From assembly GCA_041655735.1 (NCBI GenBank), contig JBBAEV010000002.1, forward strand, positions 1 through 54,592: a stretch of 54,592 nt of DNA. Direction: 5' to 3'. The stretch comes from Bacilli bacterium (lineage in GTDB: Bacteria > Bacillota_I > Bacilli_A > RF39 > UBA660). The notes beneath the pieces were generated by a model that had not been told where the DNA came from, searched no databases, and saw only the letters and a list, made by a program, of their open reading frames with translations. Positions 3,091 to 39,199 of the stretch are shown one piece after another. How positions within the stretch are numbered: position 1 is the first letter of the stretch; each line of letters opens with the position of its first letter. Both the position numbers and the translations under genes were made by a program.

Positions 3091-3572
3091 ATGAACCAAC
3101 ATTATAATAGATTCAAAGAATATAAAAATTTAAAACCCGAGTCTAATCAAGAAGAAAACTATTACAAGAAAGATACAATGCAGGACTTGAATTAGGAAGG
3201 AAAAGAGAAGCAAAGCGTATAGCAAAAGAAAAAGATTTTGAAATTCTTGAAATGAGAAGAAAAAGTTTTGAACAATATCTTTTAAATTGTGTTCCCAAAA
3301 GCGAAAGAAAGCGATTAATGAAACTATATAATACTTATTATTCTGGAATGTATATAAAGACTATGAATTTTTTTCAAGAATTAACAAAATGTAATAATGA
3401 TAATGGAATATTGGTTATTATAAGTGAATATAAAAAACACTTTGTTGAGGTATCAAATAATTTTAGTCCAAAAGGATTAGTTAGACATTATGATAATATA
3501 ATATCTATGTTTTCATTCGCATCAAATGAAGATGATAAAAAGAGAGAATATGGAAAATATGTATACAATTAA
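3091..3572 (+). pseudogene. possible frameshifted gene: 34-codon head ORF plus overlapping 106-aa tail ORF
   Basis: AAGGAG at 3073-3078. An ATG at 3091 opens a frame that stops at 3193-3195. The frame of the 3252 ORF is already open from 3147, with no ATG before 3252. A one-nucleotide indel within 3147-3195 would fuse the two frames. Confidence 0.3.
3252..3572 (+). CDS. hypothetical protein (106 aa as tracked)
   Basis: ORF from the track with no recognisable motif. It ends 1 nt before a 16-bp perfect-stem terminator. Confidence 0.45.
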   Translation: MRRKSFEQYLLNCVPKSERKRLMKLYNTYYSGMYIKTMNFFQELTKCNNDNGILVIISEYKKHFVEVSNNFSPKGLVRHYDNIISMFSFASNEDDKKREYGKYVYN

Positions 3573-3615: not shown

Positions 3616-4702
3616 GAACAATAGTCAATGATGTGAAACCAAAAAATTAAGAAGAGAAAGAAAGTAATTCAATCCTTTTTTGAATAGGAGTAAGAAAATT
3701 AAGAGTAAACATAGGAGTGTTGTTAGAGCGATTAAGATATAATTTAGCTTGATATCTAAGGTCATCTAAAGAATAAAATTTAAGGAATTCATAAAATCTT
3801 TTATTGTCATTTCTGTGAGATCTTTCAACTTTACCATTATGTCTAGGAGTTCTAGGTCTAATGGTTTGATGAAGAATATGTTCTTTGCGACAAAGAAGAG
3901 TAAATAAATGATCTTTATTGGTTTTATGATTAAAAGTAAATTCAAAACCATTATCAGTTTGAACGATTTCGGGTTTATAACTAAAATAATTAAAACAACG
4001 ATATAAGAAATCTATAGAATTATGAGAATTACGTTCTTCATAGTGATAAATAAATCTTTCTCTAGAAGCTTCATCAATACAGGTATATTGATAGAAATGA
4101 ATATCTTCAGGTAAAGAAGAAGCTTTACAGAAGTCAGGAACGTATTTAGTATCTATCTGCCATTTAATACCTATATTAGAAGGGGTATCATAGGGTTTGG
4201 GTTTATATTTGTTTTTAACGTATATTTGTTTTTTATAATAGCCTAATCGTTTCATAACACGATATAAAGAAACAGGATGCCTAGAATAACCTTTCTTAAT
4301 TCTAAGACTACCATATAGTTCAAGAAAAGTGAGGTTGGGAGATCTTCTTAGAAAATCAGATATCCACTTTAGTTCTAAAGGAGTATGAGAATTAGGATGA
4401 GGAGAGAGAGGTTTATGGGATTTATCTAATAAGGACTCTTTAGAAGCATCAAAACGATTATTCCATCTGGATAAAGAAGCTTTAGAGATATGATACTTAC
4501 GACAAATATAAGAAGATTTATAACCATTTCTATATAATTTAACAGCATTTAATCTAGTTTGAAATTCATGTGGTAAATAACGCGAATCATGTGATATAAT
4601 ATTCATGTGATTCAATCCTTTCTATATTGTTTTGGTTAATTCAATTATAAAGGTTGAATCACTTTTTGTATAGAAATCGTTTCACATCAATTGTATCGTA
4701 AC
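3616..4702 (-). mobile_element. IS481-family insertion sequence (about 1087 bp)
   Basis: A single transposase ORF. Imperfect terminal inverted repeats share the core TGATGTGAAAC (3629-3639) / GTTTCACATCA (4679-4689), each 13 nt from the element end. The element is flanked by a 27-bp direct repeat. Confidence 0.75.
3647..4606 (-). CDS. IS481-type DDE transposase (HTH + rve integrase core)
   Basis: N-terminal HTH (YICRKYHISKASLSRWNNRF). DDE core WQIDTKYV ... VQTDNGFEF ... RPRTPRHNGKVERSHR, the IS481-like signature. The track start at 4615 is a TTG directly abutting the SD AAAGGA, so the ATG at 4606 is more likely. Confidence 0.85.
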   Translation of the reverse strand: MNIISHDSRYLPHEFQTRLNAVKLYRNGYKSSYICRKYHISKASLSRWNNRFDASKESLLDKSHKPLSPHPNSHTPLELKWISDFLRRSPNLTFLELYGSLRIKKGYSRHPVSLYRVMKRLGYYKKQIYVKNKYKPKPYDTPSNIGIKWQIDTKYVPDFCKASSLPEDIHFYQYTCIDEASRERFIYHYEERNSHNSIDFLYRCFNYFSYKPEIVQTDNGFEFTFNHKTNKDHLFTLLCRKEHILHQTIRPRTPRHNGKVERSHRNDNKRFYEFLKFYSLDDLRYQAKLYLNRSNNTPMFTLNFLTPIQKRIELLSFSS

Positions 4703-4772: not shown

Positions 4773-6485
4773 ATGAGACTAATTAAAGTAATGGATCAAA
4801 TGTTAGCCAATAAAATTGCAGCTGGAGAAGTAGTAGAAAAATGTGCTTCTGTAGTTAAAGAATTAGTAGAAAATAGTATAGATGCAGGTAGTACTGAAAT
4901 AAAAATAGAATTAGAAGAAGCAGGTACAAAGAGAATAAAAGTAACTGATAATGGTAGTGGTATGGATAGAGATGATGCAATACTTGCTTTTTATAGACAT
5001 GCAACTAGTAAAATAATTAATGAAAACGATTTATATCATATTAGTACTTTAGGATTTAGAGGGGAAGCTTTACCTTCTATTGCGTCTGTTAGTGAGATTA
5101 CATTAAAAACAAGTACTGGATCAATAGGTACTATTGTTGAACTACAAGGTGGTAAAATAATTAACACTAAAAATGGCGATGCTAGAAGAGGTACTATTAT
5201 ATCAGTAGATAATCTTTTTTATAATACTCCCGCTCGTTTAAAATATATGAATAGTTTATATAGTGAACTTGCTAGTGTTACTGATTATGTAAACAAAATA
5301 GCGTTATCTCGTCCTGATATTAAAATAACTTTAAAAAATAATGACAAAGTATTATTAAACACTGATGGTAGTAATAATTTGTTGAAAGTTATTATGGATA
5401 TATATGGTGTTGAAGTAGCAAAAAAAATGATTAAATTAATAGGTAAAAATGATGATTTTAGAATATATGGTTATGTCTCATATCCTGAAATAACTAGATC
5501 AAATCGTAATCATATTACTTTGATTGTAAATAAAAGAGTAGTTAGAAATTATGAAATCATTAAAACTATTAATGATGCTTATCATACATATAAGTCAGAA
5601 GATAGGTACCCAATAGTAGTATTAAATATAGAAGTAGATTCTTCTTTATTAGATGTTAATATTCATCCGGCTAAATTAGAAGTGAAATTTAGTAAAATAG
5701 AAAGTCTTAAATCATTAATAACAGAAAATATAGAAAAATTATTAACTACTGAATCATTAATACCAGAAATAAAAGAAGAAGCCCCTAAAAACTATGAAGA
5801 AATTTCTTTTAACTTGGGTAGAGAGACGGTAAGAGAAGAAACAATGGTGTTTTCTGCTCCTATCAATAAAGAAAAAGAAATAAAAGAAGAAGAAAATAAA
5901 GAAAGATTTCCTGAATTATATCCAATTGGTAGTATTCATGGGACATATATTGTTTGTCAAAATGAAGATGGTATGTATATTCTTGATCAACATGCCGCTA
6001 AAGAAAGAATAAACTACGAAAAATATACGAAAGAACTATCAATTGCAAGAAACGAATCAAAAGAGATGCTAATTCCTATAACAATAGAATTTCCTAAAAA
6101 TGAATATATTATATTAAAAGAGAATTTAGATATATTAAAAGAACTTAATTTTGAAGTAGAAGAGTTTGGAATAAATACTTTAATAGTAAAAGCTCATCCA
6201 TTTTGGCTTCCTATTGGTTATGAAGAACAAGCAATTCGTCGTATTATGGAAATAGTAATAGATAAAGAAGATTTTGATTTAAGTAAGTTTAATGAAAAGA
6301 TTGCGACTACTTTAAGTTGTAAGCTATCAGTAAAGGCAAATGAATATATTTCTATTGAAGAAATGGAAAAATTAATCAATGATTTAAAAATATGTAATAA
6401 TCCATTTACTTGCCCTCACGGAAGACCTACAGTGATTTATTATTCAACATATGAACTTGAAAAAATGTTTAAAAGAGTAATGTGA
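4773..6485 (+). CDS. mutL: DNA mismatch repair protein MutL
   Basis: GHKL ATPase motifs AAGEVVE, DNGSGM and GFRGEAL. C-terminal endonuclease-region motif FTCPHGRP. Confidence 0.95.
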   Translation: MRLIKVMDQMLANKIAAGEVVEKCASVVKELVENSIDAGSTEIKIELEEAGTKRIKVTDNGSGMDRDDAILAFYRHATSKIINENDLYHISTLGFRGEALPSIASVSEITLKTSTGSIGTIVELQGGKIINTKNGDARRGTIISVDNLFYNTPARLKYMNSLYSELASVTDYVNKIALSRPDIKITLKNNDKVLLNTDGSNNLLKVIMDIYGVEVAKKMIKLIGKNDDFRIYGYVSYPEITRSNRNHITLIVNKRVVRNYEIIKTINDAYHTYKSEDRYPIVVLNIEVDSSLLDVNIHPAKLEVKFSKIESLKSLITENIEKLLTTESLIPEIKEEAPKNYEEISFNLGRETVREETMVFSAPINKEKEIKEEENKERFPELYPIGSIHGTYIVCQNEDGMYILDQHAAKERINYEKYTKELSIARNESKEMLIPITIEFPKNEYIILKENLDILKELNFEVEEFGINTLIVKAHPFWLPIGYEEQAIRRIMEIVIDKEDFDLSKFNEKIATTLSCKLSVKANEYISIEEMEKLINDLKICNNPFTCPHGRPTVIYYSTYELEKMFKRVM

Positions 6486-7781: not shown

Positions 7782-9734
7782 ATGAAGTATTTTTATAGAA
7801 TGTGGTTAACAATTTTTTTAAGTAGCTTATTAGTAGAAATAACATTTAGATTAATAGCTTTTGGAGAGTTATTTAACCTAATATTAATTAGAATTTTATT
7901 ATTTAGTTTAACAGTATCGATAGTTATGATGATATTAATATCTTTTTTTAGGCCTATAATAACTAAAATAATTGTTTTATTATACATATTTTTAATTAGT
8001 TTTTATGGACTAATACAACTTACTTTTAATAATTTATTAGGGGCTTATATGTCATTTAAAGCATCAATAAATAATGGATTAACTAGAGTAATAAATGAAC
8101 AATTAGGAGAATTTATTAGCGCCATAAAGCTGCAATACCTTTTGTTATTTATCCCCTTTATATTATTAATATTAAACATAAAAAAGAATAAAAAGAAATG
8201 GAAAAAAAGTTTTAATCTAAATAGAACCCAAGTAATAGTATTTTTTATAATAGGTATTATTATCCATATAGCATCTTTATTAACTCTTACAGCCCAAAGT
8301 TTTAGTACTGAATATGCCATAATAGGTGATAAAGAACTATATAATTATGTTGAATATCAAGAATTAGGATTAAATCGTTTAGGATTGGTAAGATTTGGTT
8401 CTAGAGATTTAACTACAATGATATTTCCTAAGGAAAAAACAATAGATGTTGATGGTAATCTTACTCCAGGGAATAATAAATTTACTGAATCTGATTATGT
8501 GAGAAAAATAGATGATACTAAATGGGAGGAGTTAATTAATAATGAAACAGATAAAGATATACTTACTCTTCATGATTATTATATTAATCGCTTTATTACT
8601 CCTAAAAATGAGTACACTGGTGTATTTAAAGATAAGAACTTTATTTTTATTATGGCTGAAGCATTTGATTATATTGCGATAGATAAAGATATAACTCCAA
8701 CTTTATATAAAATAAGAACTGAAGGCTGGAGTTTTGAAAAAAATTATCGTCCTAAATATAGTTGTACTACTGGAGAAAGTGAATTTATTAGTTTAGTACC
8801 TATTGTACCTGTTTCAACAGTATGTACACCTAATTATTTTAAAAATAATGAATATCCAATATCTATATTTTCATTATTTAATAAAAGTAATTATTATAGT
8901 ACTTCATATCATAATTTTACTGACCAATATTATTCTCGAACAATTTATCATAAAAACATGGGAGCAATAGAATTTTATAATAGAGATAAATTAAAAAACC
9001 CTGTTTTAAATGGATGGGGCAGCGATAAAGATTTAGTTAGGCTATCTACACCATATTATATGGACAAAGATAAATTTTTTACTTTTATGATTACTTCTAG
9101 CGCTCATTTCCCTTATGATATAACAAGTACTATCCAACAACGACATTGGGATAAAGTAAAAAACTTAGATATGCCATATAAAATAAAAACTTATTTAGCA
9201 AAATCTATTGAGCTTGATCAAGCCATAGCTGATTTATTAGATAATTTAGAGCAGCGCAACAAATTAGAAGATACAGTAATCGCAATATATGGTGATCATC
9301 ATCCTCTTCGTATGGAATTATCTTATATAAAAGAGTATTCTGATGTTGATCGCAGTAAAGCCATAGATATTGATATAAATCCATTTATTATATATACTCC
9401 AAATATGGAACCTAAAGTTATTAATGAAGTAAGTGACACTTTTGATTTTGTTCCTACGATTGCGAATCTTTTTGATTTAGACTATGATCCAAGGTATTAC
9501 TTTGGTAGTGATATATTTTCAGAAGAAGAACCACTAGCGATATTCAATGGAGGTAGTTGGATCACTGAAAAGGGATATTACAATGCAGTTAAAGGAGAAT
9601 TTACTCCACATGTTGATGAAGAAGTATCAAGCAAATATATAAATAATATAACTAATTATGTAAAAGGAGCTTTTGAAATATCATCAAAGACTTTATATAA
9701 AAATTATTATAAGAAAAGATTTAATGATAAATAA
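7782..9734 (+). CDS. LTA synthase family protein (N-terminal TM bundle + extracellular sulfatase-type domain)
   Basis: Five hydrophobic N-terminal helices are followed by a sulfatase-like domain (FIMAEAFD, SSAHFPY, YGDHHP). TGTTATAAT lies at 7756-7764. Confidence 0.75.
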   Translation: MKYFYRMWLTIFLSSLLVEITFRLIAFGELFNLILIRILLFSLTVSIVMMILISFFRPIITKIIVLLYIFLISFYGLIQLTFNNLLGAYMSFKASINNGLTRVINEQLGEFISAIKLQYLLLFIPFILLILNIKKNKKKWKKSFNLNRTQVIVFFIIGIIIHIASLLTLTAQSFSTEYAIIGDKELYNYVEYQELGLNRLGLVRFGSRDLTTMIFPKEKTIDVDGNLTPGNNKFTESDYVRKIDDTKWEELINNETDKDILTLHDYYINRFITPKNEYTGVFKDKNFIFIMAEAFDYIAIDKDITPTLYKIRTEGWSFEKNYRPKYSCTTGESEFISLVPIVPVSTVCTPNYFKNNEYPISIFSLFNKSNYYSTSYHNFTDQYYSRTIYHKNMGAIEFYNRDKLKNPVLNGWGSDKDLVRLSTPYYMDKDKFFTFMITSSAHFPYDITSTIQQRHWDKVKNLDMPYKIKTYLAKSIELDQAIADLLDNLEQRNKLEDTVIAIYGDHHPLRMELSYIKEYSDVDRSKAIDIDINPFIIYTPNMEPKVINEVSDTFDFVPTIANLFDLDYDPRYYFGSDIFSEEEPLAIFNGGSWITEKGYYNAVKGEFTPHVDEEVSSKYINNITNYVKGAFEISSKTLYKNYYKKRFNDK

Positions 9735-9761
9735 AAAACGATGAGATTTCTTATCGTTTTT
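9733..9761. terminator. bidirectional terminator between ltaS-like gene and lexA
   Basis: ACGATGAG-ATTT-CTTATCGT with one G-T pair, flanked by an A-run and a T-run. Confidence 0.65.
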
Positions 9762-10377
9762 AAAACTTTCTAAATAGTCCAATAGCTTTACCTAATATAG
9801 TTACATTGTCTAATATAATAGGATCATATAAGTCATTTTCTGGTTGCAATCTAATATAACCATTATCTTTATAAAAAGTTTTTAATGTAACTTCATCCTC
9901 GCTTGTCATGGCTACAACAATATCCCCGTTGTTAGCCACTTTACATCTTTCTATAATCATAACATCACCATCGTGAATATGTTTGTTCACCATGCTATCG
10001 CCACTCACTTCTAAAGCAAATACTTCTTTGCGGGGCGGAACTAGTTCAATAGGTAGTGAAAATGTCTCGTCAGGTCTTTCAATAGCGGTAATAGGATCTC
10101 CTGCGGTAACTTTACCTAATAAAGGGACTTCAATTACTCTATCATATGATGGTTCAAATTCATTCTTTACTAATAACTCAATGGCTCTATTCTTTTGTTC
10201 GTCCTTTTTGATAAAACCCTTAAGTTCAAGATTAGAAAGATGAGAATGAATAGTTGCGGGGGAAGATAAGTTTAAGGCTTTTCCTATTTCTCTGACAGTA
10301 GGAGGATAGCCATTTGACACAATATATTTTTTTATAAAAGTTAGAATTTCCTCTTGTCTATCGGTTAAATTTTCCAT
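9760..10377 (-). CDS. lexA: LexA repressor
   Basis: N-terminal winged HTH (TVREIGKALNLSSPATIHSHL). S24 peptidase motif VSGDSM with a downstream Lys (VTLKTF). SD AAGGAGG. Confidence 0.95.
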   Translation of the reverse strand: MENLTDRQEEILTFIKKYIVSNGYPPTVREIGKALNLSSPATIHSHLSNLELKGFIKKDEQKNRAIELLVKNEFEPSYDRVIEVPLLGKVTAGDPITAIERPDETFSLPIELVPPRKEVFALEVSGDSMVNKHIHDGDVMIIERCKVANNGDIVVAMTSEDEVTLKTFYKDNGYIRLQPENDLYDPIILDNVTILGKAIGLFRKF

Positions 10378-10734: not shown

Positions 10735-12732
10735 ATGACGCTTAATGATAAAAAGATAGTCGATACTATTAAAATGTTAAGTATTGATATGATTAATGAG
10801 GCAAAAAGTGGTCATCCTGGTATTGTTTTAGGAGCGGCCCCTATTTTATATACTTTATTTTTAAAACATTTAAATATTAGTATTAATGATCCTGAATGGA
10901 TTAATAGAGATAGATTTATTATGTCGGCAGGACATGGTAGTGCTCTTTTATATGCGACTATGTTTATGGCTGGTTATAATATTACTTTAGATGATTTAAA
11001 AGGATTTAGAAAAATAGATTCTAAAACTCCGGGGCATCCTGAATATAAAGTGACACCTGGGGTTGAAATAACAACTGGACCTTTAGGACAAGGCTTGGGA
11101 AATGCTGTTGGTATGGCTATGGCTGAAAGAAAATTGGCTTCTATGTTTAATATTGATAAAAAGGGTTTATTTGCTCAAGATATTAATATATTTAATCATT
11201 ATACCTATGTTCTTTGTAGTGATGGCGATTTAATGGAGGGCATATCATATGAAGCAGCATCTCTTGCGGGAACACTAAAACTAGGGAGATTAATTGTTTT
11301 ATATGATTCAAATAATGTTAGTTTAGATGGTTCTACCAATAAAACATTTACTGAAAATGTATTAGGAAGATTTAGTGCTTTAGGATGGCATACACAGTAT
11401 GTTAATAATGGTGAAGATGTCAATAAAGTAAGTAAAGCTATTGCTAGAGCTAAAAAAGTTTTAGATAAACCTTCAATAATTGAAATAAAAACTATTATAG
11501 GTAAAGGAGTAGTAGGAGAAGGAACTAATAAAGTTCATGGAACTCCTTTATCAGAGTCAGAAATAGAAACTTTAAAACAAAAATTAGGTTATAATAAAAG
11601 TTCTTTCTTAGTATCACAAAAAGCAATGACAGAATTTAAGAATTTAATATCAGAACGTATTAATAGCGTTTATTCAAAATGGGCAGAAGAATATAAATTA
11701 TATATGAAAGAAGCAAAAGATACCACAAAAGAATTATTAAATCAATTAATTCAAAACAAATTTACTTTTGATATATCTCAAAACATGTGGAATTTTACTG
11801 AAGACACTAATGAAGCAACAAGGGTTACTAATGGTAAAGTTATGAATATTGTTGCGGAAAATCTACCTAATTTTATTGGTGGTAGTGCTGATTTAGCTTC
11901 ATCTACTAAAACGTATATAAATAAAGAAAAAAATTTCTTGTATCCATCATATACTGGTAAAAATATTTGGTTTGGAGTTAGAGAACATCTTATGGGAGCT
12001 GTTTTAAATGGATTTGCGGTATCAGGATTTTATCCATTTGGATCCACGTTCTTAAATTTTGCTGATTATTTAAAGCCAGCATTAAGATTAGGGGCTTTAA
12101 TGGATTTGCCAGTGACCTATATATTTACTCATGATTCAGTAGATATTGGCCAAGATGGTCCTACCCATCAACCTATTGAACAATTAGCTATGCTTCGTGC
12201 TACTCCTAATTTAAATGTATATAGACCAGCTGATGCGAATGAAGTAGTGGGTGTATGGAAAGATATTTTAAATAAGAAAAAACCTAGCGCAATAGTATTA
12301 GGAAGAAATGATGTGAAATTACAACCAGGAAGTAAAGTTGATGAGGTAAGCAAGGGTGGATATATTATATCTAAAGAAGAAAAATATCCAAGAGGTATAA
12401 TTATTGCTACTGGTAGTGAAGTTCAAATGGCTAATTTAATAAAGAATGAATTGATTAAAAAAGGAATAGACATTAGGGTAGTCAGTATGCCATGTGTTGA
12501 AAATTTCTTAACTCAACCTAAAGAATATCAAGATGAATTATTTCCAATAGGTATTAAAAAGATAGTAATAGAACCATCTTCAGATAGTGTTTGGCATCGC
12601 TTTGTATATAACGATAAATATCTTATTAATATCAATGAATTTGGTGCGAGTGGTACTAGAGAACAAGTATTAAAGAAATTAAAAATAGATTATGTATCAG
12701 TACTTGAAAGAGTAGAAAAATTATTAAGATAA
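10735..12732 (+). CDS. tkt: transketolase
   Basis: Motifs GHPG, ThDP motif SDGDLMEG and GQDGPTHQPIEQL. 665 aa. TGTTATAAT lies at 10697-10705. Confidence 0.95.
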   Translation: MTLNDKKIVDTIKMLSIDMINEAKSGHPGIVLGAAPILYTLFLKHLNISINDPEWINRDRFIMSAGHGSALLYATMFMAGYNITLDDLKGFRKIDSKTPGHPEYKVTPGVEITTGPLGQGLGNAVGMAMAERKLASMFNIDKKGLFAQDINIFNHYTYVLCSDGDLMEGISYEAASLAGTLKLGRLIVLYDSNNVSLDGSTNKTFTENVLGRFSALGWHTQYVNNGEDVNKVSKAIARAKKVLDKPSIIEIKTIIGKGVVGEGTNKVHGTPLSESEIETLKQKLGYNKSSFLVSQKAMTEFKNLISERINSVYSKWAEEYKLYMKEAKDTTKELLNQLIQNKFTFDISQNMWNFTEDTNEATRVTNGKVMNIVAENLPNFIGGSADLASSTKTYINKEKNFLYPSYTGKNIWFGVREHLMGAVLNGFAVSGFYPFGSTFLNFADYLKPALRLGALMDLPVTYIFTHDSVDIGQDGPTHQPIEQLAMLRATPNLNVYRPADANEVVGVWKDILNKKKPSAIVLGRNDVKLQPGSKVDEVSKGGYIISKEEKYPRGIIIATGSEVQMANLIKNELIKKGIDIRVVSMPCVENFLTQPKEYQDELFPIGIKKIVIEPSSDSVWHRFVYNDKYLININEFGASGTREQVLKKLKIDYVSVLERVEKLLR

Positions 12733-28131: not shown

Positions 28132-29106
28132 ATGAATACAATAAAACCATGGGGAGAAAAAAACAAATTGACAGAAGAAGAAAAAACATATTATGAAAAT
28201 ATGTTTGAAGGTAAATATAAAATATTAGAACAAATAGGTATGACAGGAAGTAAAACATCTGCTTATCTATTAATTGATAAAAATAATAATAAATATGTTT
28301 TGAAAATTGCTAATGATAAAAATGATAAAGAATGGATTGATAGACAAAAAGAAACTATTGAAAACAGAGATTGTTTATTAGATGGATATTATGGAAATGT
28401 TTTCATCCCTAGAGTAATTTTAACAGGGAATAATTTTATTGTTGAAGAATATGCTGGTGAAGATTTTACAAAAGATCTTTATGATAGTCTTGACGAAATA
28501 GAAAGAAAACAAGTAGCTTTGGATATAGCTAATTTTTTAAATTTTATTCATCAGAAAAATCCAGTAAATGAAATATCTCCATTTACAGGATTTGATAAAC
28601 CAACATTTGAAGAAATAATTAATTACTGTAATAAAGATATATCAGAAAAGTTAAAAAATCATATTGATGAACTATTATTAAAATATAGTAGTAGAGATGT
28701 TTCTGATGAAATCACTACAAATGTGCATTCTGATATAAGATATCAAAATGTTTTATATAACAGAGATACAAAAAAAATATCTGTTATAGATTTTGAACTT
28801 ACAAGAAGAAAAAATATATATTATGATTTTGTACCAGCAGCACCTGCTTCATTTGAGATGTCATATGAATTTTTGTCTGATATTATAAATGATTATAATG
28901 ATCTTAATAAAAAGATTCCGATTATCATAGATATAGAAAAGGTAAAATTATTGCATAAACTTGGATGTTTCCACGAGTATGGAAGATGTGCTGTATATAG
29001 GAAAACACCTTCTAGTCAATTAAAAGGTATTATGGAAACTGTCAACAACCGACTTAATGATATTGATAATGGTTTTAGTAATGCTAATAGTAATATAAAA
29101 ACTTGA
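28132..29106 (+). CDS. APH/choline-kinase/CotS-type phosphotransferase family protein
   Basis: Kinase-fold signatures: YVLKI (beta3 Lys), catalytic loop HSDIRYQNVLY, and VIDFE. Substrate is unknown. Confidence 0.65.
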   Translation: MNTIKPWGEKNKLTEEEKTYYENMFEGKYKILEQIGMTGSKTSAYLLIDKNNNKYVLKIANDKNDKEWIDRQKETIENRDCLLDGYYGNVFIPRVILTGNNFIVEEYAGEDFTKDLYDSLDEIERKQVALDIANFLNFIHQKNPVNEISPFTGFDKPTFEEIINYCNKDISEKLKNHIDELLLKYSSRDVSDEITTNVHSDIRYQNVLYNRDTKKISVIDFELTRRKNIYYDFVPAAPASFEMSYEFLSDIINDYNDLNKKIPIIIDIEKVKLLHKLGCFHEYGRCAVYRKTPSSQLKGIMETVNNRLNDIDNGFSNANSNIKT

Positions 29107-29131
29107 CAAACTAATAAAAAAAACTTATCAT
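29103..29131 (+). promoter_or_regulatory. candidate promoter TTGACA-17-TATCAT overlapping the kinase stop codon
   Basis: TTGACA at 29103-29108 and TATCAT at 29126-29131. Confidence 0.45.
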
Positions 29132-29159: not shown

Positions 29160-29423
29160 ATGATTGATTTAGAAGGTTTGAAAGAAATTAGTAATAACCT
29201 TGATAGATTAGAAGGCTCAACAATGCCTATTGATTTAGCTCAAGAAGATAGATATTATAGTGAAGCAGAAAAAGCATATATAGAGTCACAAAGTATTCCT
29301 AGTAATGAACTTCTAACAAGGACAACTATAAACGTAGACAAAAGATACCTACAAGCATTAACCATTTTTACTATTCATTGTATGAAGAATGAAGAGGCTG
29401 CTAGACAAATGATAAAGCAATAA
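29160..29423 (+). CDS. hypothetical 87-aa protein
   Basis: Strong SD AAGGAGGAG, and a terminator follows. No motif recognised. Confidence 0.5.
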   Translation: MIDLEGLKEISNNLDRLEGSTMPIDLAQEDRYYSEAEKAYIESQSIPSNELLTRTTINVDKRYLQALTIFTIHCMKNEEAARQMIKQ

Positions 29424-29495: not shown

Positions 29496-30764
29496 ATGCT
29501 TAGAGGATTAAAACTACCAAAACATAAAAATATGTCTCTAGGTAAAGATATATTAATTTATGATAAACCAAAATATGTATATATACCCCTTGCGATATAT
29601 AATAACCTTGAATGCACTCCTATGGTAAAAAAAGGTGATTATGTATATGTAGGAGATGTTATAGGTAAAAGAAATGATCATTTTAAATTACCTATTTGTT
29701 CTAGTATTAGTGGTGAAGTAATAGGTATTGAAAAAAGATATCATAGTAGTGGACATGAAGTAGATTGTATAAAAATAAAGAATGATTTTAAAAACAAAGT
29801 ATTAAAACAAGAATTAATTACTGATATAACTGATTATTCTAAAACTGATTTTATTTCATTAATTCAAACTAGTGGTGTGGTTGGTATGAGTGGTACTGAT
29901 TTTCCTACTTATATTAAATATAATACTAATAAAAAATTAAACACTTTACTTATAAATGGTACTGAATGTGAACCATATATAACATCAGATTATATATTAC
30001 TTTTAAATTATATAAAAGAAATATGTATAGGTATTCATGCTATACTTGGGATAATGAAGATAAATAAAGCTATTATTGCGATAAAAAAAGGACATCCTGA
30101 ATTAAAAAAGATAATATTAGATGAAATAGATAGTTATTCTTGTATTGAATTAAAAGAAGTTAGCGATTATTATCCTATTGGATGGGAAAAAGTATTAATT
30201 AGAAAAGCATTACATAAAAAATATGATAAATTACCAATTGATATAGGAGTTATTGTAAATAATGTATCTACAATATATGCAATATATCAAGTATTAAAAA
30301 ATAAACACTGTATAACTGATAGAATTATCACTATTACTGGCGATAAGATAAAAAAACCTACCAATGTATTGGTAAAAATAGGTACTCCTATAAGTGAAGT
30401 AATAGAATTTATTGGTGGTTATAAAAGAGGAAAAGATTTAAAGCTAATTGCGGGGGGTCCAATGACAGGCAATTCTATTAAAGTTGATAATCTAGTAGTT
30501 AGCGCTAACTTGAATGGTGTTCTTGTGCGAGAAAATGATAGTGATACATTTGATGATCAATGTATGAGATGTGGTAAATGTATAGATGTATGTCCTGTAA
30601 AAATATGTCCGGCATTAGTAAAAGATCATATTGATGATATAAATGAACTAAAGAAATTAAGGGTTGATAGATGTATTGAGTGTGGTTTATGCTCTTATAT
30701 ATGTCCTGCCAAAATAGAACTTCGTGAGTATGTAAAAAAAGGTAAAAGTAAAGTAGGTGATTAA
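29496..30764 (+). CDS. rnfC: Rnf complex subunit C
   Basis: LINGTECEPYITSDY plus two ferredoxin motifs, CMRCGKCIDVCP and CIECGLCSYICP. The glycine-rich motif reads GMSGTDFPT where GLGGAxFPT is usual. TGTTATAAT lies at 29464-29472. Confidence 0.85.
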   Translation: MLRGLKLPKHKNMSLGKDILIYDKPKYVYIPLAIYNNLECTPMVKKGDYVYVGDVIGKRNDHFKLPICSSISGEVIGIEKRYHSSGHEVDCIKIKNDFKNKVLKQELITDITDYSKTDFISLIQTSGVVGMSGTDFPTYIKYNTNKKLNTLLINGTECEPYITSDYILLLNYIKEICIGIHAILGIMKINKAIIAIKKGHPELKKIILDEIDSYSCIELKEVSDYYPIGWEKVLIRKALHKKYDKLPIDIGVIVNNVSTIYAIYQVLKNKHCITDRIITITGDKIKKPTNVLVKIGTPISEVIEFIGGYKRGKDLKLIAGGPMTGNSIKVDNLVVSANLNGVLVRENDSDTFDDQCMRCGKCIDVCPVKICPALVKDHIDDINELKKLRVDRCIECGLCSYICPAKIELREYVKKGKSKVGD

Positions 30765-32195
30765 ATGAAAGAATTTGCAACTAACCATGGCCCTCATATT
30801 AAAGATGACAATACTACTTCTAAAATGATGAGAAATCTATTTATCGCATTATTTCCTATTATAATATTTTCATATATAAAAAATGGGCTTCTTCCTTATT
30901 TAGATAATAATATTTCTTTTATTAATAGCTTAAAACCGTTATTAATGGTATTAATAGGAGGATTTACTTGTACATTAGTTGAAATATTTTGGGCTAAAAT
31001 TAATAAAAAAGAGAAAATAAGAGAATATATATCAAAATCATATCCAATATTTCCTGGTATATTTTTAGCATTGATTTTACCGCTTAATACGCCTTATTAT
31101 GTAATTATAATTGGAGCTATTTTTACCACCTTTTTTGGCAAACTTATATTTGGTGGTTTTGGTCACAATATATTTAATCCCGCAGGAGTAGGTAGACTTT
31201 TTATTATTCTTTCTTATTATTCTGTAATAACGGGAAGTGGTGGTTATTTAAATGGTAGTGAATTAGATGCAGTAAGTAGTGCTACTCCTTTAACAAATGC
31301 ATCTACTAATTTTATTGGTAATTATTCGACATTAGTTAAACCATTTGGAACCCTCTGGGATTTCTTTTTTGGGTTTATTCCTGGGTCACTTGGTGAAACT
31401 AGTGCATTACTTTGTATTATAGGTCTAATATTTTTATTAATTAAAAAAGTAATACCATGGCGTATTCCTATTATTTATATTGGAACGGTATTTATAATAA
31501 CTTTTATTATCGGTATGAGTAATAATTTAGGTATATGGTACCCACTATTTCATATATTAAGTGGGGGCTTAATGTTTGGAGCTATCTTTATGGCAACAGA
31601 TCCTGTTACATCTCCTACAACACCATCTGGACAAGCATTTTATGCCTTAGGATTAGGATTTTTAACTGTTGTCTTTAGATTTTTAAGTGCATATCCAGAA
31701 GGTGTATTAACCTCTATTCTCACAATGAATTTCTTAGTAATTATTATTGATAAAATATTTAGTAGGGGACGATATGATAGAAAGAAATTATTAATACCAT
31801 TTATTATATTACTATTATTAATAGGTTCTATTACTTACTATATAAGTACTAAAGATAAAGCTAAAATACCTGATGATAGTTCTGATTTTAAGGTAAATGA
31901 TATAAGTAGAGAAAATAATAATACTATTTATAATGTTACTTATAAAGGATATCATGGTAATATTGAAGCTAACATTACATTTATAGATAATAAAGTTATT
32001 AGTATAGATATTACTAAACAAAATGAAAATGTATGGCAATCTATTACTGATAACAATTATTTAAATAAAATAATTTCAAATCAAAGTAATTTAGAAAAAT
32101 TAGATGCGATAAGTGGTGCGACTTATACATCTGATTATTTAAAGGAAATGGTTGATAATACTATAAAATATCATGAAGGTGATAATGATGAATAA
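30765..32195 (+). CDS. rnfD: Rnf subunit D fused to an RnfG-like TM + FMN_bind module
   Basis: The RnfD core carries the flavinylation motif DAVSSATPL. From residue 340 (nt 31782) comes an extra TM helix (LLIPFIILLLLIGSITYYIS) and an RnfG-type domain (KGYHGNIE ... AISGATYTS). Confidence 0.85.
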   Translation: MKEFATNHGPHIKDDNTTSKMMRNLFIALFPIIIFSYIKNGLLPYLDNNISFINSLKPLLMVLIGGFTCTLVEIFWAKINKKEKIREYISKSYPIFPGIFLALILPLNTPYYVIIIGAIFTTFFGKLIFGGFGHNIFNPAGVGRLFIILSYYSVITGSGGYLNGSELDAVSSATPLTNASTNFIGNYSTLVKPFGTLWDFFFGFIPGSLGETSALLCIIGLIFLLIKKVIPWRIPIIYIGTVFIITFIIGMSNNLGIWYPLFHILSGGLMFGAIFMATDPVTSPTTPSGQAFYALGLGFLTVVFRFLSAYPEGVLTSILTMNFLVIIIDKIFSRGRYDRKKLLIPFIILLLLIGSITYYISTKDKAKIPDDSSDFKVNDISRENNNTIYNVTYKGYHGNIEANITFIDNKVISIDITKQNENVWQSITDNNYLNKIISNQSNLEKLDAISGATYTSDYLKEMVDNTIKYHEGDNDE

Positions 32196-32280
32196 CAAAA
32201 TAAAACCTATTTTTATTCTTACTTTAATTACTTTTATTGTAACATTATTAATTACCATTGTTTATAATTATACGAGGTGA
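32185..32280 (+). CDS. 31-aa TM mini-ORF resembling an RnfG N-terminal anchor
   Basis: MMNNKIKPIFILTLITFIVTLLITIVYNYTR. AAGGTGA lies just upstream. The stop overlaps the rnfE SD. Absent from the ORF track (too short). Confidence 0.3.
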   Translation: MMNNKIKPIFILTLITFIVTLLITIVYNYTR

Positions 32281-32284
32281 TAAT

Positions 32285-32908
32285 ATGAAAAAATTTTTTA
32301 AGAAAATAGTAAATGAAAATCCGGTTTTAGTATTAACTCTTGGTATGTGTCCTACCTTAGCTATTACTACAAAATTAGAAAATGCTTTAGTAATGGGAAT
32401 GGCTGTCACTATAGTATTAATATTATCTAATTTTATTATTTCTATAGTATCAAAATACATAGATAATAAAGTAAGGATACCTTGTTTTATAATTATTATC
32501 GCAGGATTAGTAACTATTCTTGAAATACTAATGAATACATATCTTCCTACAATGTATAAAATATTAGGAATATATATTCCCTTAATTGTAGTAAATTGTA
32601 TTATCTTAGGAAGAGCTGAAAGCTATGCCTCTAAGAATAAACCAATATCTAGTATTATTGATGGTTTAGCTATTGGATTAGGATTTACTTTAGCGATTTC
32701 TATTATTTCTGTTATAAGAGAAATAATAGGAAGCGGTACCTTAACTATTTTTGATAGTACATCTAAGTTAATTGGGTATAAAGCAATATATAATATATTT
32801 GATTATCCAATAAAAGTATTTACTACACCAGCAGGAGCTTTTTTAACATTAGCTATTATTATTGCGATAATAAATAAGATAAAAAGTAAAAAGGAGGTAG
32901 TTAAATAA
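32285..32908 (+). CDS. rnfE: Rnf complex subunit E
   Basis: NPVLVLTLGMCPTLAITT is the typical RnfE N-terminus. The ATG at 32285 follows GAGGTGA. The track start at 32258 is an upstream extension. Confidence 0.88.
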   Translation: MKKFFKKIVNENPVLVLTLGMCPTLAITTKLENALVMGMAVTIVLILSNFIISIVSKYIDNKVRIPCFIIIIAGLVTILEILMNTYLPTMYKILGIYIPLIVVNCIILGRAESYASKNKPISSIIDGLAIGLGFTLAISIISVIREIIGSGTLTIFDSTSKLIGYKAIYNIFDYPIKVFTTPAGAFLTLAIIIAIINKIKSKKEVVK

Positions 32909-33477
32909 TGAATTTACTAACTCTAGCGATTAATGCAATATTAATTGAAAATCTTATTTTAATGAAATTTTTAGGTATATGTCCTTTTATTGGACTTTCT
33001 AAAAGAAAAAGAACAGCTATTGGGATTAGTTTTGCTTCAATATTTGTAATGACAATATCATCTATTCTTTCATACTTTATATATTATAAGATATTAGTGC
33101 CTTATAATATGGAATATTTAAAAACAATAGTATTTATACTGGTAATCGCAACCTTTGTTCAATTAACTGAAATAATAATAAAATCGATATCTAAAACATT
33201 AGTAAAAACATTAGGTATATATTTACCCCTTCTTACTACCAATTGTGCTATATTAGGGGTAGCTTTAATTAGTGTAAATAGTGATTTTAACTTATTAGAA
33301 GTTATTATATATTCAATAAGTAGTGCTTTAGGATTTATGCTTGTTATGTATATTTTTGCAAGTCTTAGAGAAAGATTAGACAAATCTCCTATTCCTAAAT
33401 CATTTAAAGGACTTCCTATTGCGTTTGTCACGGCAGCTATACTATCAATGATATTTACTCAGTATATAGGAGCGTAA
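32908..33477 (+). CDS. rnfA: Rnf complex subunit A
   Basis: ENLILMKFLGICPFIG, with six hydrophobic helices. The start overlaps the rnfE stop (ATAATG). Confidence 0.9.
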   Translation: MNLLTLAINAILIENLILMKFLGICPFIGLSKRKRTAIGISFASIFVMTISSILSYFIYYKILVPYNMEYLKTIVFILVIATFVQLTEIIIKSISKTLVKTLGIYLPLLTTNCAILGVALISVNSDFNLLEVIIYSISSALGFMLVMYIFASLRERLDKSPIPKSFKGLPIAFVTAAILSMIFTQYIGA

Positions 33478-33478
33478 T

Positions 33479-33580
33479 ATGTGGATTTTATTAATATTAA
33501 TAATTTTATATACTTTCTCTTCATATAAAAATAATAATTGTAAATCATGTAAAAAAGATTGTAAGGGGTGTATTAAATGA
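33479..33580 (+). CDS. 33-aa TM + Cys-rich mini-protein (FeoB-associated Cys-rich / P12-like architecture)
   Basis: MWILLILIILYTFSSYKNNNCKSCKKDCKGCIK. AGGAG lies 6 nt upstream. It begins 2 nt after the rnfA stop. Confidence 0.4.
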   Translation: MWILLILIILYTFSSYKNNNCKSCKKDCKGCIK

Positions 33581-33678
33581 AATCAGTACTAATAGTAACA
33601 ATAATCTCTTTTATCGCAGGCCTGTTATTAATAATAGTTGATACATTTCTTAATAAAAAGAAAAATAATAAGAAATAA
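33577..33678 (+). CDS. 33-aa TM mini-ORF resembling the RnfB N-terminal anchor
   Basis: MKSVLIVTIISFIAGLLLIIVDTFLNKKKNNKK. ATGA overlap with the preceding mini-ORF. No Fe-S domain coding follows. Confidence 0.3.
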   Translation: MKSVLIVTIISFIAGLLLIIVDTFLNKKKNNKK

Positions 33679-33812
33679 CTATCACTAATGTCGATTATTA
33701 GGGAAATAAAGTTGTATAAAAACAGGAAAATATCTGTTAAATAATTTGCATTGTTATACTATTATGATATAATAAAAACTAGATGATAGGTTGATAAATG
33801 GAGGGAAGCATA

Positions 33813-34208
33813 ATGTTAGAAAAAATAAAAAAGATATTTACTGGTAGTGACAAAGAAAAATCTGATATAGTAGAAGATGAATTTTATGACGTTACTTCTG
33901 AAGATGCTTTTAAAGAATTAGGTGCTGATGGTAATAAAATGGTTCTTTTAGAACCTAAGGCTTTTTCTGAATCACAAGCTATAGCGGATCACTTAAAATC
34001 AAGGAGATCGGTAGTAGTTAATTTTAAAAGGGTAACTCCTGAACAAGCAAAAAGGATTGTTGATTTTTTAAGTGGTACAGTATATGCCATTGGTGGAGAT
34101 CTACAAAAATTAGGTAATGGTATTTTTTTATGTACTCCTCGCAACGTTCCTGTTGAAGGAAAAATGACTGAAAATGATGATAATGAATTTGTAGATATAA
34201 AGTTATAA
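33813..34208 (+). CDS. sepF: cell division protein SepF
   Basis: [43 protein letters not shown] is the SepF core. The ATG at 33813 follows GGAGGGA. Confidence 0.9.
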
Positions 34209-38496: not shown

Positions 38497-38518
38497 TCTT
38501 TCATAATGAAAGATTATT
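38492..38518. terminator. bidirectional terminator (pilin-like gene / sigK)
   Basis: AATAATCTTTCA-TAA-TGAAAGATTATT, a 12-bp perfect stem flanked by A- and T-runs. Confidence 0.75.
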
Positions 38519-39199
38519 TTTTATAAATTTTCTAAGTATTTTTGTTAGTGCTCTTTTTTCTATTCTTGATACATAGCTTCTAGATATTCCAAGTTCTTCT
38601 GCTATTTCTTTTTGTGTTTTTTCTGCAGTATTGTTTAATCCATACCTTTTAGTAATAATTTGTTTTTCTCTTTCTGATAATATTCCAATATATTTTTGAA
38701 GTAACTTTATATTATTATCAGTATCTATTTGTTTAATATAATCTGGATTTGGTGTTTTTAAAATATCTAAAAAAGTTATTTCATTACCTTCTTTATCATA
38801 TCCAATTGATTCATTTAAACTAACATTACGATTATTTTTTTTATTGCTTCTAAAATGCATTAATATTTCATTTTCAATACATCTTGCACAATAAGTAGTT
38901 ATTCTTGTTCCTTTTTTATTAGAAAAAGAATCAACACCTTTTATTAATCCTATTGTACCTATACTAATTAAATCATCTGTCTCATTGTGATTGCTAACAT
39001 ATTTTTTTACTATATGCGCAACTAATCTTAAATTATGTTCAATTAATTTATTTCTTGCATTTTTATCCCCAACCAATGCTTTTTTAATATACTCTTCTTC
39101 TATTTTGCGGTCTAATGGCTCAGGGAATAAACTATTACTATAAGAACCAGAAAAGAAGAAAAATTCCTTTATTATTTGTAAAAGAATTGATAAAAACAT
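38501..39199 (-). CDS. sigK: sporulation sigma factor SigK (pro-sigma-K), uninterrupted
   Basis: Pro-sequence-like N-terminus ending in FPEPL. Motifs IEHNLRLVAHIVKKY, ISIGTIGLIKGVDSF, ARCIENEILMHFR and GISRSYVSRIEKRAL. Confidence 0.85.
   Translation of the reverse strand: MFLSILLQIIKEFFFFSGSYSNSLFPEPLDRKIEEEYIKKALVGDKNARNKLIEHNLRLVAHIVKKYVSNHNETDDLISIGTIGLIKGVDSFSNKKGTRITTYCARCIENEILMHFRSNKKNNRNVSLNESIGYDKEGNEITFLDILKTPNPDYIKQIDTDNNIKLLQKYIGILSEREKQIITKRYGLNNTAEKTQKEIAEELGISRSYVSRIEKRALTKILRKFIKNNLSL

Follow-up and report, generated by a model that had tools for sequence, protein, structure and literature searches.

An Rnf operon with RnfB cut to its membrane anchor in an uncultured low-GC member of the Bacilli

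We analysed a stretch of 54,592 nucleotides (nt) of contig JBBAEV010000002.1 (GenBank assembly GCA_041655735.1), called the window below, from an uncultured spore-forming member of the Bacilli with about 25% GC. Its rnf operon encodes an Rnf complex in which RnfB is cut to its transmembrane (TM) helix. What is new here is the Rnf operon with an anchor-only RnfB, which is a variant of the known Rnf system; short RnfB proteins are already known. RnfB is regarded as the obligatory electron input of Rnf, and the iron-sulfur (Fe-S) cluster of its FdI domain is treated structurally as the donor to the intramembrane [2Fe-2S] centre. The anchor-only operon offers a direct test of what the minimal input module is and of whether the anchor helices of RnfB and RnfG belong structurally to the core. 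The explanation that we favour, and consider probable, is an Rnf complex whose RnfB was trimmed to a structural anchor, with the FdI domain lost and small genes (micro-genes) retained in the operon.

The rnf operon of the window

The operon and its downstream junction are composed of the following features, where ORF is an open reading frame, aa are amino acids, and positions count from the first letter of the window.

29496 to 30764, forward strand: rnfC, 422 aa; Pfam domains RnfC_N, Complex1_51K, SLBB and two Fer4
30765 to 32195, forward strand: rnfD::rnfG fusion (rnfD::G), 476 aa; NQR2_RnfD_RnfE (Pfam ID PF03116, E value 4.6e-85) and FMN_bind (Pfam ID PF04205, E value 4.7e-11)
32173 to 32280, forward strand: mini-ORF0, up to 35 aa, MKVIMMNNKIKPIFILTLITFIVTLLITIVYNYTR; single TM helix between rnfD::G and rnfE
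32285 to 32908 (open frame from TTG 32258), forward strand: rnfE, 207 aa from ATG 32285; Pfam Rnf-Nqr, E value 2.2e-62
32908 to 33477, forward strand: rnfA, 189 aa; Pfam Rnf-Nqr (Pfam ID PF02508), E value 1.5e-48
33468 to 33472, forward strand: Shine-Dalgarno (SD) sequence AGGAG for mini-ORF1, within the last rnfA codons and 6 nt before the ATG; kept in the sister species
33479 to 33580, forward strand: mini-ORF1, 33 aa, MWILLILIILYTFSSYKNNNCKSCKKDCKGCIK; N-terminal TM helix, lysine-rich cytoplasmic tail, Cx2Cx3Cx2C
33577 to 33678, forward strand: mini-ORF2, 33 aa, MKSVLIVTIISFIAGLLLIIVDTFLNKKKNNKK; TM1 anchor of RnfB and lysine-rich stop-transfer tail, as judged by alignment
33679 to 33797, forward strand: sepF upstream region, 119 nt, analysed by promoter scan and three-frame translation

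An earlier reading of the bare letters (the original prediction) had placed rnfC, rnfD(-G), rnfE and rnfA contiguously from 29496 to 33477, which the Pfam matches confirm. The two overlapping 33-codon mini-ORFs that it reported, the first with a TM helix, a cysteine cluster and AGGAG, are likewise present.

RnfC forms the NADH/flavin mononucleotide (FMN) module, and the motif scan finds two [4Fe-4S] motifs of the form CxxCxxCxxxCP in it, CMRCGKCIDVCP and CIECGLCSYICP. The RnfD::G protein, a fusion also found in relatives, is laid out as an RnfD membrane domain, one linking TM helix, and an extracytoplasmic FMN_bind domain, and both flavinylation motifs (SSATPL and SGATYTS) can be read from the translation. 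Its fused G domain matches RnfG and an extra G'-like protein of Izemoplasmatales, in both cases weakly. For rnfE, the gene calls on identical contigs begin at the equivalent of position 32285. The cysteine ligands are present in RnfE (GMCP and VNCIILG) and in RnfA (GICPF and TNCAILG), and these four [2Fe-2S] cysteines match the published ligand positions (PMC11889175). Thus, the RnfC module, the RnfD and RnfG flavinylation motifs, and the RnfA and RnfE cysteine ligands of an Rnf complex are all in place, and what the window lacks is an RnfB with an FdI [4Fe-4S] domain as the ferredoxin-side entry.

The family and motif scans of the window agree with the original prediction that no RnfB follows rnfA or precedes rnfC, and no ORF with a PF04060 or Fer4 domain lies at either place. 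An RnfB/FdI, polyferredoxin, or ApbE domain was found nowhere in the 54.6 kb by a family search of ORFs of at least 90 aa together with a motif scan, and the only CxxCxxCxxxC motifs in the window are the two of RnfC.

A functional RnfB, or a dedicated soluble FdI- or ferredoxin-like protein, may be encoded elsewhere in the genome, so that the complex would be a normal ferredoxin:NAD+ oxidoreductase with mini-ORF2 as a leftover or a docking helix. The genes seen are those of 54.6 kb of the genome, and Rnf subunits are occasionally encoded apart; moreover, rnfA and rnfE are strongly constrained, so that a cytoplasmic partner of the [2Fe-2S] centre must exist. However, among the matches listed from the genome and metagenome scans, the RnfB-like proteins with upstream sequence all directly follow rnfA. 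The only listed match from a sample containing this organism (L160; L-numbers are the labels of the comparison loci gathered for this analysis) has 49% GC and an rnfA of its own and therefore belongs to another organism. The metagenome scan with a short RnfB of the clade gave no candidate for a stand-alone RnfB from this organism among the matches listed. With mini-ORF2 also being under purifying selection and not decaying, we consider an RnfB encoded elsewhere to be unlikely.

Mini-ORF2 and the short RnfB proteins of relatives

RnfB has a TM helix and two further domains: FdI (B8), which is mobile, and a polyferredoxin domain, which varies. FdI enters the space between RnfA and RnfE, where it passes electrons to the intramembrane [2Fe-2S] centre (PMC12174285, PMC11889175). 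The start of mini-ORF2 overlaps the stop of mini-ORF1 (ATGA), with AAGGGG 8 nt upstream. Aligned with six short RnfB proteins of the clade and one RnfB of Izemoplasmatales, mini-ORF2 is collinear with residues 1 to 33 of the relatives' short RnfBs, which have the same position and the same overlapping start. Its ...VDTFLNKK aligns with ...LDSFLNDR or ...VDSKLNDK, and it ends about six residues before the LPGxNCGxCG motif of the short RnfBs. When 11,757 six-frame ORFs of 85 loci were searched with phmmer, mini-ORF2 matched best, apart from its own orthologue, the short RnfBs of L092 and L062 (E values 1e-3 and 4e-3). Mini-ORF2 has no cysteine, no FdI motif CxxCx4-5Cx16-17C, and no RnfB match in Pfam or NCBIfam; it shares with RnfB the TM helix directly after rnfA but neither the FdI domain nor the C-terminal domain with 2 to 7 clusters. 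The original prediction had likened this ORF to the N-terminal anchor of RnfB, and the alignment of RnfB N-termini, the synteny, and the phmmer matches all indicate that it is this anchor and all that remains of rnfB.

The short RnfBs of relatives are 80 to 96 aa long in about 30 operons of the low-GC clade and 80 to 118 aa overall. They have no C-terminal domain with 2 to 7 clusters, and their matches are limited to PF04060 and, in the RnfB models, to the ~75 N-terminal positions. Judging by these matches, they consist of a TM anchor and a single-cluster FdI domain, which is the Thermotoga maritima type and not a polyferredoxin. The ancestor of the window lineage already had such a minimal single-cluster RnfB. 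The polyferredoxin-type RnfB that the original prediction took for the missing form is therefore not what was lost, since the relatives' RnfB is FdI only.

The T. maritima RnfB has 10.6 kDa and one predicted [4Fe-4S] cluster, and its complex is an active Na+-pumping ferredoxin:NAD+ oxidoreductase (Kuhns et al. 2020, PMC7414866; also PMC9588780). It resembles the relatives' RnfB after rnfA in being a TM helix with an FdI (PF04060) domain, in the gene order rnfC-D-G-E-A-B. In contrast, mini-ORF2 corresponds to the first third of such a protein and stops before the cysteine motif of FdI, leaving no Fe-S site. Vitt et al. (2022) stated that an RnfB without any cluster would put the general function of the subunit in question (PMC9588780).

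The junction downstream of rnfA and the lineage comparison

Downstream of rnfA, mini-ORF1 and mini-ORF2 are followed by 119 nt and then by sepF, divIVA, and ileS. The about 120 nt and the sepF promoter named in the original prediction correspond to this spacer and to a promoter-like TTTGCA-17-TATAAT with an extended TG found by the promoter scan at 33745 to 33773. The DNA from about 33690 on is homologous to the 119 nt directly after rnfD::G in L100 (7644 to 7762), a third species described below. A remnant of FdI, or a read-through into it, 3' of mini-ORF2 is excluded, as no cysteine motif shows in the three-frame translation and the sequence is homologous to sepF upstream DNA of L100, which lacks rnfE and rnfA. 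There is no Rfam element in 33300 to 34000, the fold z-score of the spacer (-1.8) is unremarkable, and no intrinsic terminator was found after mini-ORF2.

A sequencing or assembly error that hides a long rnfB frame, which the original prediction had offered as an alternative, is also excluded. The exact RnfA protein is found on six contigs, namely, in the metagenome-assembled genome (MAG) GCA_964407065.1 and in five assemblies from other samples, and these six agree in every one of the 390 nt that span the end of rnfA and the start of sepF, with only 119 nt between mini-ORF2 and sepF.

The relatives that form the clade (L092, L094, L096, L098, L099, L062, and about 20 metagenome loci) have an RnfA 48 to 59% identical to that of the window. 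Their gene order is rnfC, rnfD::G (often with two FMN_bind domains), a TM ORF of 28 to 38 aa, rnfE, rnfA, a TM and cysteine-rich ORF of 32 to 44 aa, and an RnfB of 80 to 96 aa. The species representatives in the genome collection do not include the window species, and the RnfA scan gave best matches of only 45 to 59% identity there. The comparison of the same locus in relatives, which the original prediction had proposed as a check, thus gives a short rnfB at this place in the clade operons and both mini-ORFs in a sister species. In L092, the rnf operon adjoins the same sigma gene as in the window (61% identity) with no sepF-divIVA-ileS block between, a sign that the rnfB end was rearranged. 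The 112-aa protein after rnfB in L092 has no homology to the 133-aa protein after ileS.

Two side observations concern these relatives. The gene after a short rnfB is often a lipoprotein (L010, 7155 to 8096; L013, 8094 to 9041; L065, 8137 to 8538), where the L065 lipoprotein has a flavinylation-like motif, AGASLTS, which fits an Rnf that also feeds extracytoplasmic acceptors. L062 is a contig of 26% GC labelled uncultured Muribaculaceae bacterium, with the Bacilli-clade rnf architecture, including the mini-ORFs and an 86-aa RnfB, and is probably mis-binned in its MAG.

The third species (L100) is an outgroup to the window species and the sister species, its ParC, DivIVA, and IleRS being 85%, 82%, and 82% identical to those of the window. 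In the same neighbourhood, its order is rnfC, a Ser_hydrolase/NUDIX gene (5214 to 6221), rnfD::G, 119 nt, and sepF, where rnfE, rnfA, and all three micro-ORFs are cleanly deleted. The rnfC and rnfD::G genes of L100 are intact with their cofactor motifs kept and diverge faster (ratio of non-synonymous to synonymous substitution rates, dN/dS, about 0.26 to 0.30). Three states are therefore found in the lineage, an FdI-only RnfB (clade), an anchor-only RnfB (window and sister species), and no RnfE, RnfA, or RnfB (L100). The lineage appears to be shedding the ferredoxin-side branch, with the half leading from NADH to the extracytoplasmic flavin persisting.

L100 also encodes a protein with DUF362 and two [4Fe-4S] clusters between divIVA and ileS (8892 to 9989), which is not in the window. 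Directly 5' of rnfC, the window has an 87-aa ORF (29160 to 29423, forward strand) without a family match, preceded by a strong promoter-like TTGACA-17-TATCAT (29103 to 29131). This ORF has no TM helix and one cysteine and is not RseC-like; it is conserved at this place in the third species (85 aa), and the sister species has a small ORF in the slot (112 to 131 aa as called).

Selection on the mini-ORFs

We estimated dN/dS by the Nei-Gojobori method between the window and the sister species (RnfA 88% identical; L007 to L009, including a 405-kb contig).

mini-ORF1: dN/dS 0.10; synonymous 10/16, non-synonymous 9/83; Fisher p 2.6e-5
mini-ORF2: dN/dS 0.14; synonymous 10/22, non-synonymous 7/74; Fisher p 4e-4
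mini-ORF0: dN/dS 0.12; Fisher p 3e-4
rnfA: dN/dS 0.07, the lowest of the genes compared
rnfD::G: dN/dS 0.13
rnfC: dN/dS 0.17
divIVA: dN/dS 0.13

In the sister species, mini-ORF1 and mini-ORF2 are both open with the same ATGA junction, though their synonymous sites differ by 46 to 61%, and all four cysteines, both SD sequences, and the ATGA coupling are kept. The synonymous divergence of the three micro-ORFs is about 0.5 to 1.2. The low dN/dS values together with the conserved cysteines, SD sequences, and ATGA coupling indicate that the mini-ORFs are maintained genes and that the Rnf genes of the window species are not decaying. Of the suggestion in the original prediction that rnfB was truncated to its anchor and the complex is defunct, the truncation agrees with the alignment to the short RnfBs, whereas a defunct complex is not what we find in this species, where the dN/dS of the Rnf genes is 0.07 to 0.17 and the motifs are intact.

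The comparative data effectively refute the reading of the two mini-ORFs as chance, unexpressed frames in AT-rich intergenic DNA, to which we give hardly any credence. Although they are very short, of low complexity, and mostly ignored by gene callers, more than 25 operons with an RnfA only 48 to 59% identical have homologues in this place, synonymous change exceeds non-synonymous change, and the SD sequences and ATGA coupling are conserved. At this base composition, the stop probability is about 0.1 per codon, and a random frame of 33 codons would be open with a probability of about 0.03.

The ferredoxin branch might instead be dead and in slow decay, where the half from NADH through RnfC and RnfD to RnfG feeds the extracytoplasmic flavin or an outside acceptor and the mini-ORFs are relics. 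Such a course resembles L100, which keeps rnfC and rnfD::G intact without rnfE, rnfA, and the mini-ORFs and has a foreign gene inserted, and relatives have multi-flavinylated RnfD::G::G fusions and downstream flavin-binding lipoproteins, arrangements that are thought to feed extracytosolic acceptors (PMC8238504). In the window species, however, rnfA is the most constrained gene and its four [2Fe-2S] partner cysteines with RnfE are intact, and the micro-ORFs have a dN/dS of 0.10 to 0.14 at the synonymous divergence given above; as a stop would arise with a probability of about 0.1 per codon at 25% GC, relics would not stay open. We regard a dead branch as distinctly unlikely.

Partial NQR/RNF-like and multi-flavinylated systems, in which the electron path is partly lost or extended, have been described (Meheust et al. 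2021, PMC8238504), and the RnfD::G(::G) fusions and the state of L100 fit them. Their defining feature is either the fusion of an RnfD-like domain to a NAD-binding domain of the NqrF type or the presence of RnfB (K03616). The operon of the window is unlike these systems in that RnfC, RnfE, and RnfA are kept and only the soluble part of RnfB is missing.

A family of cysteine-rich micro-proteins

The start of mini-ORF1 lies two nt after the rnfA stop. Its orthologue in the sister species is 82% identical with all four cysteines kept, and in the phmmer search the next matches are ORFs of the clade at E values of 3e-5 to 2e-3, followed by a gap to 0.5. In essentially all operons of the clade, a homologue begins no more than about 15 nt from the rnfA stop; such homologues are found in L092, L094, L062, L096, L098, L099, L102 to L121, and other loci; examples are MIAYLLLILLIIITLMLFKNNKCSNCEGCNKCKE, MGFILLILLFVLTLILYSKNRCSKDCGNCKRCMK, and MIGFIILILIFIITCILYRKNNCKNCNNCLKCGRKK.

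The resulting family consists of proteins of 32 to 44 aa with a TM helix, a basic linker (Y/F-K/R-K-N), and 3 to 4 cysteines within about 11 residues followed by lysine or arginine, and the end of the ORF overlaps or abuts rnfB. Mini-ORF1 agrees with this description in every respect. The positive-inside rule would place the cysteine loop at the membrane surface on the cytoplasmic side. In Erysipelotrichaceae-like and other operons whose RnfBs have 95 to 118 aa, this slot is taken by a longer form of 52 to 71 aa (...NKKTPVPxxC...C..C....C).

No Pfam or NCBIfam model covers the family, and our literature search found no description of a cysteine-rich micro-protein family associated with Rnf; the T. 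maritima-type RnfB literature (PMC7414866, PMC9588780) mentions no cysteine-rich micro-ORF before rnfB. By its homologues and their positions, mini-ORF1 is a member of a conserved, unannotated family that is not specific to the lineage and is older than the loss of FdI. The original prediction had considered the cysteine-rich mini-protein as a replacement of RnfB. It did not arise as one, since it coexists with a short RnfB in about 28 operons, but it could still compensate for the lost FdI domain.

Among the non-redundant loci gathered, the micro-protein ORF is present in 28/37 operons with a short RnfB (23 by filter and five by inspection) and in 0/38 with a long RnfB, where the lineages are related and half of the loci were collected with a short-RnfB query. 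This restriction to short-RnfB operons weakly favours a role tied to electron input.

The only Pfam signal for mini-ORF1 is FeoB_associated (Pfam ID PF12669) with 18.3 bits, below the gathering threshold of 27 bits, and the sister orthologue and clade homologues (five homologues) do not match this model. PF12669 proteins have one TM helix and a cysteine-rich tail like mini-ORF1; they are widespread in Firmicutes, for the most part lack annotation, and have no known function (PMC8749426). Their spacing Cx3-5Cx2-3Cx6-8C differs, however, and the partner of mini-ORF1 is rnfA/rnfB and not feoB at every locus examined.

NqrM is said to have one TM helix and four conserved cysteines, as reportedly described by Kostyrko et al. 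in 2016. Like mini-ORF1, NqrM (DUF539, Pfam ID PF04400) is a small single-pass membrane protein of a pump operon, and its cysteines are essential. It is reported to be an Fe-S maturation protein that the intramembrane cluster of NqrD/E, the equivalents of RnfA/E, requires (PMC12174285, PMC6209661). Mini-ORF1 might accordingly be an NqrM-like maturation factor that delivers iron or Fe-S to the [2Fe-2S] centre of RnfA/E, the loss of FdI being unrelated. Its position directly after rnfA and the resemblance to the reported NqrM architecture (PMC12174285, PMC6209661) point in this direction, and a variable cysteine spacing would suit a transient metal carrier. Yet mini-ORF1 is about half the size of NqrM with no detectable similarity, neither NqrM nor RseC (Pfam ID PF04246) matches it at E values up to 1, and it lies between rnfA and rnfB, unlike NqrM, which comes after the structural genes and apbE. 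The setting differs further in that mini-ORF1 was found only with short RnfBs in the loci sampled, and the 28/37 versus 0/38 distribution would be unexpected for a general insertion factor, although this is a weak argument as the lineages are related. A maturation factor is thus possible but, on balance, rather doubtful.

RseC/RnfF (PF04246) resembles the mini-ORFs as a small Rnf-linked membrane protein and has been proposed to stabilise or modulate the complex (PMC9124969). It differs in having two predicted TM helices, in being much larger, and in its position upstream of rnfC, and no mini-ORF gives a hidden Markov model (HMM) match to it.

An RnfG-like helix upstream of rnfE

Mini-ORF0 partly overlaps the ends of its neighbouring genes and is likely to start at the methionine at 32185 or 32188. 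Counterparts of 28 to 38 aa are found in the same slot in L008, L092, L094, L096, L097, L098, L099, and L062; the position, which is the usual rnfG slot, is conserved across the clade. With an HMM built from 51 RnfG N-termini, the clade being excluded, mini-ORF0 ranks first of 8,569 small ORFs (E value 1.4e-4), and the next six ranks are clade homologues of mini-ORF0 and two mini-ORF2 sequences. Mini-ORF0 thus looks like an RnfG reduced to TM1 after the FMN-binding domain was fused to RnfD.

In solved Rnf structures, the TM helices of RnfB and RnfG pack together with one helix from RnfA and one from RnfE into a four-helix bundle (PMC9588780), where TM1 of RnfB contacts TM1 of RnfG (PMC11889175). 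The anchor of mini-ORF2 and the helix of mini-ORF0 may have been retained because they are structural parts of this bundle.

Proposed explanation

The ancestral operon carried two micro-genes: the one between rnfD::G and rnfE encoded an orphan RnfG-like TM helix, and the one separating rnfA from rnfB encoded a TM and Cys4 (four-cysteine) peptide of 33 to 36 aa. The FdI-coding DNA was lost in the last shared ancestor of the window and sister species, at the junction where the operon now meets the sepF upstream region. On the simplest reading, a rearrangement or deletion with its end-point inside rnfB would have brought the two together. Since then, mini-ORF1 and the remainder of rnfB, mini-ORF2, have stayed open and translationally coupled, with purifying selection acting on both. 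Mini-ORF0, being clade-wide, may be an older precedent for the same anchor-only fate. The Cys4 motif of mini-ORF1 would be a putative metal or Fe-S site at the cytoplasmic membrane surface beside RnfA/E.

With the cysteine ligands of RnfA/E intact and rnfA under strong constraint, there must still be a redox partner in the cytoplasm. It could be the centre of mini-ORF1, a soluble ferredoxin or flavodoxin that docks directly, or an unlinked FdI-like protein; of these, the Cys4 centre and direct docking may be the likeliest electron routes. The pump either takes in electrons by a new route or is being dismantled.

Several points weigh against the account of an RnfB trimmed to a structural anchor. 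The match of mini-ORF2 to the general RnfB N-terminus HMM is weak (E value 0.24, rank 5 of 8,569 small ORFs), and RnfB and RnfG cross-match in their TM helices. That the mini-ORFs are translated is inferred from conservation only, gene callers never call mini-ORF1 and call mini-ORF2 only sometimes, and the selection on the truncated state was estimated from one species pair with about 33 codons for each mini-ORF. A stand-alone RnfB or FdI protein may lie outside the 54.6-kb window. The loss of rnfE and rnfA in L100 implies that the module is dispensable in the lineage, which fits slow decay too. Finally, the cysteine spacing of the micro-protein family varies (Cx2Cx2Cx2C, Cx3Cx2Cx2C, or Cx2Cx3Cx2C, with some members having three cysteines or Cys3His), so that a loose metal site fits better than a fixed cluster fold.

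Beyond the trimmed anchor, we tentatively put forward a bolder idea, with a small chance of being right, in which the Cys4 peptide would be a seventh Rnf subunit, a membrane-tethered "nano-ferredoxin" with an Fe-S centre at the cytoplasmic mouth of RnfA/E, acting as a ferredoxin-side entry in short-RnfB lineages and as the sole entry in the window lineage. If true, this would be the first Rnf shown to work without any RnfB Fe-S domain, held by two orphan anchors (TM1 of RnfB and TM1 of RnfG) that persist as micro-proteins of their own. The micro-protein family is in any case a candidate, either for the role that NqrM has in NQR or for a further redox subunit of Rnf, and metabolic predictions that score Rnf by RnfB (K03616) would misclassify such organisms.

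Other features of the window

Apart from the rnf operon, the window holds housekeeping and sporulation genes, with mutS/L, miaA, an ltaS-like gene, lexA, tkt, a sirA-like gene, parE/parC, uvrABC, and lepA as well as a SigE/K-like sigma factor, comEA/EC, holA, gpr, and spoIIP. For LepA and IleRS, the best named relatives come from MAGs labelled Bacilli bacterium. An insertion sequence (IS)-type transposase/integrase (3647 to 4615, reverse strand; rve core and HTH_28) lies between mutS (36 to 2594) and mutL (4773 to 6485), and the small ORFs at 2594 to 2986 and 3252 to 3572 adjoin it without a family match.

The ileS gene (34894/34924 to 38019, forward strand) is 36% identical to that of the sister species in the same syntenic position (L008, 8007 to 11126), whereas the genes flanking it are 83 to 92% identical. 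This suggests that, in one of the two lineages, another type of IleRS took over the position of the original ileS. The window-type IleRS has relatives at 82% and 75% identity (P0242 to P0244).

The SigE/K-like sporulation sigma gene (38501 to 39199, reverse strand) is intact in the window. It is interrupted at the same nucleotide (about window position 38873) in L002, which is the same species (11594 to 12563), and in L100 (13556 to 15620 and from 22970 on), where the insert starts with a 565-aa large serine recombinase. The insert is a skin-like intervening element, and its interrupted and uninterrupted forms are both in the data.

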